64,000 bases of DNA. Origin: Camelus ferus. Taxonomy: Eukaryota. Below the pieces are notes generated by a model. The model was not told the DNA's origin. It ran no database searches and saw only the letters and a program-made list of their open reading frames with translations. The DNA is taken from NCBI RefSeq assembly GCF_009834535.1, contig NC_045696.1:73472001-73536000 (forward strand), read 5' to 3'. Made by a program: the position numbers and the translations under genes. Of this stretch, positions 17,304 to 18,843 are shown piece after piece. Position 1 is the first letter of the stretch. Each line of letters begins with the position of its first letter.

Positions 17304-18843
17304 GTCCTGTTTCACAGCTGCTGCACCTCTTGTTAATATCTGGATCAGCAGTGACTCTAATGAACCTACCATTATGGGCAAAAAGAAGACCCATATCAAT
17401 ATTATCGTTATCAGCCATATGAACCCTGGCAAATCCATCACCACTGAGCATCTCATTACAAGTGTGGGGCATTAACGAGAACTATGAGAAGTTTGAGAAG
17501 GAAGCAGCAGAGATGGTCAAGGGCTCCTTCAAGTATGCTTGGGTGCTGGGCAAACTGAAGGCAGAAAGAATGTGACATCACCAAGACATCTCCCTATGGA
17601 AGTTTGAGACCACCAAAAATTACATCACCATCATCAATGCCCCAGCCAATGGAGATTTCACCAAGAACACGATTATGGGCCCATCCCAGGCTGACTGTAC
17701 AGCGTTCATCGTGTCCAGCAGCATGGGCGCATTTGAAGCAGACACTCCAAGAATAAACAGACCTGTGAGAATATGCTACTGGTCTATACACTGGGTGTGA
17801 AGCCAATCATCATGGCCATCAACAGGATGGACTCCACTAAGCCCATCTACAGTGCCATGTGCTTCCACAAGATCACCCGGGAAGTGAGAGCCTACATCAA
17901 GAAGACTGGCTACAACTTGCCTGCTGTGGCCTTCATGTTCATCTCAGGCTGGCGTAGCCCAGCACCAATACGTCCTGGTTCAAGGGCTGGAAGGTCAAGA
18001 GGAAGGAGGGAAATTCCTCAGGGATGACTCTGCTGGAGGTTCAGGAATCCATTCTCCTTCCCACTCATTTAGTCAATGAGACCCTGAGGCTGCCTCTGCA
18101 AGACGTGTACAAGATTGGAACATTGGCCCTGTGCTGATGGGCCATATGGAGACTGGCTTCCTGAAACCTGGGATGGTGATCACCTTTGCCCCACCAACCT
18201 CATCTTGTAAGTCAAGTCTGTGGAGATGCACCAGGAGATACTGCTTGAGGCCCTGCTTAGTGACAACATGGGTTTCAATGTGAAGAATATGCCTGAAGGA
18301 CATTCATTGTAGAAATGTGAATGGAGACAGCAGAACAACTCCCACCCCCCTACATGGAGGCTGGTAGCTTTGTGGTACAGGTACCTGTTTTAAACCAAGA
18401 ACTGGCAGATTCATGCCAGTTATTCCTCAGGGCCAGACAGACATACAGCCCACATCTCCTGAAAGTTTGCTGATCTAAGGGAAAAGACTGACCAGTGTTC
18501 AGGCATGAAGCTGGAGGACAACCCCAAGGCCATGAAGTCAGGCATTGTGCCAATTGTCCTTGGCAAGGCCATGTTTATGAAGATGTTCTCTGTATACCCA
18601 CCACTAAGCTATTTTGCTGTGTAGGATGTGAGACAGACAGTGGCCACTGGAGTCATCAAGGTAGTATATAAGTAGTCATCTACTGTAGGCAAGGTCACCA
18701 AGTCAGCAGTAAAGGCCAGCAAGAAATGAAGCATGTCCCCTACAGTCTCCTCAGCAATCTTCAACTATAAAAATTACTTAATATTCTATGTATTTACTGA
18801 GTAAGATTAATACAAATTAAGTAGCTGTCACACAAAAAAAAAG
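17304..18843 (+). pseudogene. Full-length processed pseudogene of elongation factor 1-alpha, from a divergent paralog that is not clearly EEF1A1 or EEF1A2
   Basis: ATG 17374 ([15 protein letters not shown]) to TGA 18727-18729 (GKVTKSAVKASKK*). Motifs [56 protein letters not shown]. Intronless, with multiple stops and frameshifts. PolyA remnant 18834-18842; TSD AATAGACAA at 17295-17303 and 18844-18852. Confidence 0.96.

Follow-up and report, generated by a model that had tools for sequence, protein, structure and literature searches.

An intronless copy of a gene for elongation factor 1-alpha (EF-1alpha, eEF1A) lies at positions 17304-18843 of the window, by which is meant the whole 64,000-nucleotide stretch of Camelus ferus DNA analysed here, and the question that this locus raises is which gene it was copied from. 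Mammals have been stated to have two active eEF1A genes, EEF1A1 and EEF1A2, and an earlier note on this DNA, made from the sequence alone, had proposed that the copy derives from neither of them but from a third paralog resembling the oocyte type. The evidence presented below supports a third, intron-containing eEF1A gene as the parent of the copy, and a relic of that gene is found elsewhere in the same genome.

Structure and decay of the copy

The copy is full-length and mRNA-derived, and comprises, with its flanks, the following features:

17295..17303, + strand: left target-site duplication (TSD), 9 bp, AATAGACAA, an exact repeat of 18844-18852
17304..17373, + strand: 70-nt 5' leader carried over from the parent mRNA, between the left TSD and the ATG
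17374..18729, + strand: decayed intronless eEF1A coding sequence (CDS) of the 'oocyte form-like' paralog, as assigned by frameshift-aware alignment, diagnostic sites and tree
18608..18729, + strand: segment matching the surviving last coding exon of the parent (counterpart G000:C10:9723042-9723158, - strand)
18730..18833, + strand: copied 3' UTR, 104 nt, homologous to G000:C10:9723287-9723382 (+ strand)
18809..18814, + strand: decayed polyadenylation signal AATACA, aligned with an AATAAA of the parent relic
18834..18842, + strand: poly(A) remnant, A9
18844..18852, + strand: right TSD, 9 bp, AATAGACAA, an exact repeat of 17295-17303

The coding sequence opens with an ATG at 17374 and closes with a TGA at 18727-18729, and the 9-bp duplication is the longest repeat common to both flanks (50-55 nt of flank searched). 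The host EEF1A1 and EEF1A2 genes, on contigs C18 and C19 respectively, are both intact with six coding introns each, and all six intron positions taken from these genes (after CDS nt 144, 324, 621, 772, 1029 and 1264) are bridged in the copy with no inserted sequence. The left junction is A/T-rich and, by eye, resembles the LINE-1 endonuclease consensus only loosely. The earlier note had described the intronless full-length structure, the poly(A) remnant, the 9-bp TSD and UTRs of ~70 and ~105 nt, and the seven peptides that it quoted all occur, spread over the three forward frames. Depending on the reference, frameshift-aware alignment calls for 11-12 frameshifts and four in-frame stops; motifs G1, G3 and G4 have also changed. 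The copy is a dead processed pseudogene, which itself has no function.

Assignment of the copy to a third paralog

Two groups of mammalian proteins other than EEF1A1 and EEF1A2 are referred to here by their database labels, 'elongation factor 1-alpha, oocyte form-like' (O-like) and 'somatic form-like' (S-like). The C-terminal piece of the copy, used as a query, returned non-A1, non-A2 eEF1A proteins of bear, seals and turtles, and the bear protein as a query in turn exposed a clade of full-length O-like proteins. In frameshift-aware alignment the copy is 69.1% identical to the elephant O-like protein P0185 and 63.2% identical to each of the EEF1A1, EEF1A2 and S-like references. In the tests that followed this initial alignment the copy was read against the EEF1A1 reference to avoid favouring the O-like clade, and in the diagnostic-site analysis it is 64% identical to EEF1A1.

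At 31 sites diagnostic between O-like proteins and EEF1A1, the copy carries the O-like state at 20, the EEF1A1 state at one and another state at ten (binomial p 2e-5). The corresponding counts are 23, 2 and 10 at the 35 sites that distinguish O-like proteins from EEF1A2 (binomial p 2e-5), and 14, 2 and 10 at the 26 sites that distinguish them from S-like proteins (binomial p 0.004). All 31 other EF-1alpha copies and fragments of the same genome lean to EEF1A1 states, several of them on one to four sites, and of the 32 copies examined, processed or fragmentary, the window copy alone is O-like. Control copies that are equally decayed have O-like and EEF1A1 states in ratios of 1/18 (L008), 1/23 (L029), 1/21 (L030) and 0/19 (L031), while six comparably decayed EEF1A1 copies give a pooled count of 6 versus 119 (Fisher p 2e-18 against the window copy). 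The argument of the earlier note that the diagnostic positions go beyond random decay of an EEF1A1 copy is thus borne out.

A tree of the kind that had been suggested there, with EEF1A1, EEF1A2, the Xenopus form and the 'like' genes, was built carefully from 52 rows and places the copy inside the 13 O-like rows with support of 100/100. When three decayed EEF1A1 copies were added as long-branch controls, they went to EEF1A1 and the window copy stayed in the O-like clade; one rhinoceros row, which was without its first 48 residues in the 52-row tree and in the diagnostic-site set, was complete in this control tree, with the same placement. AU tests, carried out on a quick tree of 25 of the 52 rows, reject joining the copy to EEF1A1 (p 0.020), EEF1A2 (p 0.022) or the S-like clade (p 0.039), these p-values being modest because of the length of its branch (1.04 changes per column in the careful tree). 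The UTRs are also unlike those of EEF1A1, as had been claimed: scores against the flanks of host EEF1A1 and EEF1A2 stay within shuffle range, being reached by 78 and 322 of 500 shuffles for the 3' UTR and by 85 and 171 of 200 shuffles for the 5' leader.

That the copy is an old retrocopy of EEF1A1 (or EEF1A2) in which random decay mimics another paralog would agree with EEF1A1 being the source of every other classifiable copy examined (31/31, several on 1-4 sites) and with the heavy decay of the copy, but it is made extremely improbable by the diagnostic states (20 versus 1, against 6 versus 119 in decayed EEF1A1 copies), by the trees and AU tests, and by UTRs that are unlike those of EEF1A1/2 while the 3' UTR matches the relic described below. 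As separate candidates, EEF1A2 (2 of 35 diagnostic sites, AU p 0.022, UTRs within shuffle range) and the S-like gene (2 versus 14 states, AU p 0.039) were rejected. The claim of a third parental paralog, neither EEF1A1 nor EEF1A2, is therefore upheld by diagnostic sites, trees, AU tests and a relic with a shared 3' UTR.

Two minor observations concern the other EF-1alpha loci of this genome. A very divergent EF-1alpha-like fragment (L025, G000:C29:27609200-27611200) covers residues 86-243 with 43% identity to EEF1A1, aligns poorly and could not be placed with any one paralog. The intact EEF1A1 (L001, G000:C18:16.19 Mb) lies on contig C18, whereas the camelid homologue of human 6q is numbered 8, which may be a matter of numbering or assembly.

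A relic of the parent gene on contig C10

A DNA search of the genome (a 2.09-Gb assembly) yielded one match that is neither EEF1A1, EEF1A2 nor one of their retrocopies, at C10:9723042-9723169. The match is a last coding exon whose end reads KVTKSAVKASKK; it carries a 1-nt deletion, lacks a stop where one is usually found, and is preceded by a pyrimidine tract and a CAG acceptor at the conserved last-intron position. Positions 18608-18729 of the copy agree with this exon at 92 of 118 aligned bases (local score 121, against a shuffle maximum of 36), and the last 36 coding bases of the copy, 94% identical to it (E 1.8e-6), have no other match in the genome apart from the copy itself. For the last exon alone the difference between candidate parents is slight, the copy being 78% identical to C10 and 74% to EEF1A1.

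In the orientation of the exon, the 3' UTR has no match on C10 (412 of 500 shuffles reach the score). It matches the opposite strand at C10:9723287-9723382, ~130 bases from the acceptor, with 68 of 91 aligned bases identical, and this score was reached by none of 1000 local shuffles and none of 100 shuffles over the whole 99 kb; an AATAAA on C10 aligns opposite the AATACA of the copy. An EEF1A1 or EEF1A2 origin is refuted by this match of the 3' UTR to a separate exon-bearing locus. One neighbour of the relic is the first exon of MTNR1B (best match PDB 7vh0, E 2.9e-39), and the other is the 3' end of a FAT-type cadherin gene with cadherin, laminin-G and EGF exons, which we take to be FAT3 from human synteny. 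The parent relic is thus located at G000:C10:9.723 Mb, between the FAT-type cadherin gene and MTNR1B, and its last coding exon and 3' UTR stand in opposite orientations. The simplest reading would be a single inversion of ~240 bp that flipped the intron tail and the exon in place. By eye, an 11-nt direct repeat flanks the flipped exon (G000:C10:9722967-9723290, in L004) and a similar motif is present in the intron tail; such repeats could have directed the inversion.

A search of the interval separating the neighbours (52.7 kb, C10:9690200-9742900, on both strands) for exons 2-7 and the 5' leader gave nothing beyond the range of 12 shuffles per test in 13 of 14 tests; in the remaining one, a 33-nt exon-7 match at C10 9720388-9720420 reached 40, just over the shuffle maximum of 37, and was left out of account. 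A tblastn search over 99 kb around the relic likewise returned the last exon only. No source exon for the 5' leader turned up in the parent interval, and the genome search with the leader finds only the leader itself. The suggestion of the earlier note to look for an intron-containing parent with the UTRs is borne out for the 3' UTR, which matches beside an exon with a splice acceptor, and not for the 5' leader; the parent so found is a relic.

Searches of the genome with turtle, pig and rhinoceros proteins did not find an intact O-like or S-like gene, and the only high-identity exon sets were EEF1A1 (C18) and EEF1A2 (C19). These searches scored 92 of 100-108 candidates, the best ones only, and missed the C10 exon itself, yet either gene, if intact, should have ranked alongside EEF1A1 and EEF1A2. 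Three low-identity loci, at C8 48.98 Mb, C18 28.47 Mb and C37 44.92 Mb, are presumably the HBS1L and GSPT genes. No trace of the S-like gene was found in this genome by these searches. The parent of the copy is no longer a working gene in this genome, only its last exon and 3' UTR having been found.

Age of the copy and fate of its parent

Over 567 non-degenerate positions, taken from residues that nine O-like proteins all share, the copy shows 84 differences (K2P 0.169), and with a neutral rate of ~2-2.5e-9 per site per year its age would be roughly 65-85 million years, a figure that CpG decay inflates. Six residues are common to pig and ruminants against elephant, perissodactyls and carnivores, four of them clustered in residues 442-449; the copy is ancestral at five of the six and one step from ancestral at the sixth, whereas the C10 exon is artiodactyl-derived at all four of the sites it covers. 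An ancestral copy beside a derived exon points to a retrotransposition that probably preceded the artiodactyl radiation, and to a parent that lived on and died later. Joining the copy to pig and bighorn is not rejected (AU p 0.54), and the tree itself gives no insertion date.

It is likely that a spliced and polyadenylated mRNA of the parent was reverse-transcribed and inserted by the LINE-1 machinery in the germline or early embryo, that the insertion preceded the artiodactyl radiation and was followed by functionless decay, and that the parent remained in use long enough to gain artiodactyl-specific residues. The parent would later have been destroyed on the lineage of this genome through loss of its upstream exons and the ~240 bp local inversion. 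A fixed retrocopy implies no more than that the mRNA of its parent once occurred in the germline or early embryo, and this holds just as much for EEF1A1.

Instead of the C10 locus, the source of the copy could also have been a sister duplicate, since vanished, of the O-like gene, or an earlier retrocopy of that gene which was itself transcribed. The ancestral C-terminal tail of the copy beside the artiodactyl-derived C10 exon would suit such a source, as would the untraced source of the 5' leader, and duplicates do occur, the white rhinoceros having two O-like models on different scaffolds. However, an early insertion from the C10 locus explains the difference in the tail without an extra gene, identity to C10 is 75-78% for coding exon and 3' UTR alike, and no second O-like locus emerged from three protein and three DNA searches of the genome (best candidates only, the protein searches having missed the C10 exon), so that a sister source appears quite unlikely. 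Taken as a whole, the account of a processed pseudogene of a third mammalian eEF1A, with its parent relic on C10 and the history proposed here, is very likely to be correct.

The copy shares its intronless structure, poly(A) remnant, TSD and disabled frame with the processed pseudogenes of mammalian EEF1A1, many of which were found in this genome and which were reportedly described by Madsen et al. in 1990. It differs from them in that its parent is neither EEF1A1 nor EEF1A2, and in preserving exons that this parent lost in this genome. The locus is a clear case of a retrocopy that has outlived its parent and records its lost exons.

Intact O-like and S-like genes in other placental mammals

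The copy matters as a pointer to a conserved third, and to a fourth, eEF1A gene of mammals. The O-like clade contains full-length proteins of 460-461 aa from donkey, zebra, rhinos, cats, hyena, elephant, pig, warthog and several ruminants (among them pig XP_003129826.2, donkey XP_014690838.3, elephant XP_003415685.2 and leopard XP_019305101.2). These RefSeq and Ensembl models belong to the same clade as the copy (100/100) and have the same KASKK end and diagnostic residues; they are full-length and intron-bearing, in contrast to the dead retrocopy of the window and the relic of its local parent. In pig, goat, manatee and bear, gene models are interrupted at the conserved exon borders 48, 207 and 421/422, which indicates that the O-like gene has introns elsewhere. 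The intact genes may lie in the same FAT-MTNR1B interval as the C10 relic, the lengths of their contigs being in keeping with the homologous chromosomes. The S-like proteins represent a fourth mammalian eEF1A (P0015, P0022-P0035, P0092, P0100, P0121), full-length in dogs, cats, bears, seals, rhinos, pig, elephants and manatee, and form a separate clade (100/99) that is ~86% identical to the O-like proteins and ~86% to EEF1A1. Like the O-like models they are neither A1 nor A2, belong to the same amniote group and lack Lys165, but the copy prefers O-like over S-like states by 14 to 2.

The O-like proteins of elephant, donkey, pig and leopard are 93.0-95.7% identical among themselves and 88.3-90.2% identical to EEF1A1/2. 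Identity of 93-96%, compared with ~69% for the neutrally decayed copy, would reflect selection for a working elongation factor, and thus indicates that the intact O-like gene has been under long purifying selection. The G1-G5 motifs are intact in the O-like proteins of donkey, rhinoceros (P0180), leopard, hyena, elephant, pig, warthog and bighorn, and the intact proteins keep Lys36, Lys55, Lys79, Lys318, Glu301 and Glu374; the product is most likely a functional carrier of aminoacyl-tRNA that depends on GTP, as other eEF1A proteins do. Lys165, absent from all O-like and S-like mammalian rows, is the site of a dynamic, stress-responsive methylation by eEF1A-KMT3/METTL21B according to PMC10238732.

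Judging from the sequences, not every O-like model in the databases is a working gene. GTPase motifs are substituted in ruminant models (G1 in oryx, G3 and G4 in takin, G5 in deer), and the black bear model P0004, likewise altered in its motifs, is broken. The ruminant substitutions together with the broken bear model suggest ongoing loss of the O-like gene, and no primate, rodent, bat, whale or camelid O-like record was present among the matches listed. The white rhinoceros has near-identical O-like models, P0073 and P0180, on different scaffolds (78.6 and 30.3 Mb), one of which may be a recent duplicate or an intact retrocopy.

Some mammals therefore probably have more than the usual two EF-1alpha genes. 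Both extra genes already exist as automatic RefSeq/Ensembl models, and searches of the open literature found no description of mammalian O-like or S-like genes, while subscription papers and supplements, outside the scope of this survey, may hold one. A third and a fourth mammalian eEF1A gene would contradict the published two-gene account.

Relation to the Xenopus oocyte form and other vertebrate eEF1A genes

The name 'oocyte form' in the databases is probably a mere best-hit label, and the relationship was examined through trees. In the careful tree the O-like, S-like, echidna and turtle rows group together (98/94), and this amniote group joins amphibian and fish sequences at 88/83, a grouping recovered in all three trees (SH-aLRT 94 and 95 in the quick ones). 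Xenopus EF-1alpha-O (the germ-cell form, NP_001079602.1) groups with this third vertebrate eEF1A lineage, as zebrafish eef1a1l1 probably does; in the trees eef1a1l1 was represented by goldfish P0084, with which it shares EEITKEV, as read from a primer in PMC6997148. There is accordingly moderate support, as far as sequence comparison goes, for placing the O-like and S-like genes in the lineage of Xenopus EF-1alpha-O, the link being one of lineage and not one-to-one; mammalian O-like proteins resemble Xenopus O (88.5-89.6%) no more closely than EEF1A1. The oocyte-type likeness claimed at the outset thus stands at the level of the lineage but not as a direct counterpart, and two extra mammalian genes are involved where one had been supposed. 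The AU test of whether the O-like and S-like clades are sisters (p 0.39) is compatible with either arrangement.

Turtles have two related genes of this lineage (P0036, P0086), which in the snapping turtle carry consecutive accessions (KAG6931268.1, KAG6931269.1), suggesting a tandem pair; the turtle pair are sisters in the tree, independent of the mammalian O-like/S-like pair. Another oocyte-associated eEF1A paralog is 42Sp50 of the oocyte storage particle, which in PMC9403048 is repeatedly lost in tetrapods, reported lost in all mammals, and located near Myc-Fam49b-Asap1. The C10 relic, between a FAT cadherin gene and MTNR1B, has different neighbours from those given there, and the trees contained no 42Sp50 sequence.

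Possible role of the O-like gene

We slightly favour the view that the intact O-like gene serves germ cells or early embryos, and its expression may be germline-specific. Even if the parentage is as described, the O-like gene may instead be a fading, weakly expressed duplicate with no germline-specific role, 'oocyte form' being only a best-hit name; this reading competes solely with the germ-cell or embryo step of the explanation and is compatible with the parentage. The loss of the gene in this genome, the broken black bear model P0004, the motif substitutions in several ruminant models and the want of primate, rodent, bat, whale or camelid O-like records among the matches listed are all consistent with fading, as is the yield of one O-like retrocopy against 31 others examined. 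The related zebrafish eef1a1l1, moreover, is expressed in all adult tissues tested (PMC6997148). On the other hand, 93-96% identity among elephant, donkey, pig and leopard, against ~69% for a neutral copy, argues for long purifying selection, and the retrocopy points to germline or early-embryo mRNA on at least one occasion. A fading duplicate is thus to be taken seriously, if on balance somewhat doubtful.

With the germ-cell or embryo role, the fullest interpretation would be that many placental mammals other than primates and rodents retain working eEF1A genes, one or two in each case and so far undescribed, that belong with Xenopus EF-1alpha-O and zebrafish maternal eef1a1l1 in a single lineage. 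The O-like gene would then be a repeatedly lost germ-cell or early-embryo factor without the Lys165 methylation site, the gametes' own elongation factor, and the window copy a near-complete, pre-artiodactyl fossil of its mRNA. We propose this combination tentatively, its chances falling just short of evenly balanced. If the O-like and S-like genes are expressed, they would allow a direct test for a dedicated elongation factor in mammalian germ cells, as in frog, and in livestock and carnivores they could interfere with assays that rely on EF-1alpha peptides, antibodies or reference-gene primers.

Other observations in the window

Four RNA-seq runs of a single study ('reproductive system metagenome') contain 0.85-1.00 of the sampled words of the copy, and other runs smaller shares, transcript and carried-over DNA being indistinguishable in such counts. 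A listing of open reading frames and repeats, non-exhaustive for genes, gave no obvious host exons in the window, only repeats. Just 3' of the right TSD is an insertion of ~300 bp, extending to about 19166 and bounded by an 8-nt direct repeat, which we take to resemble the 3' end of LINE-1, with flanks that resemble an L2 relic. Interspersed repeats common to other loci occupy 1164-3180, 14935-16022, 55473-57047 and 58155-58573 of the window, and the ORF fragments at 1163-1465, 55557-55913 and 56232-56830 read to us like pieces of LINE-1 ORF2. A tandem duplication at 63356-63567 consists of two copies of a 107-bp unit with 94% matches.
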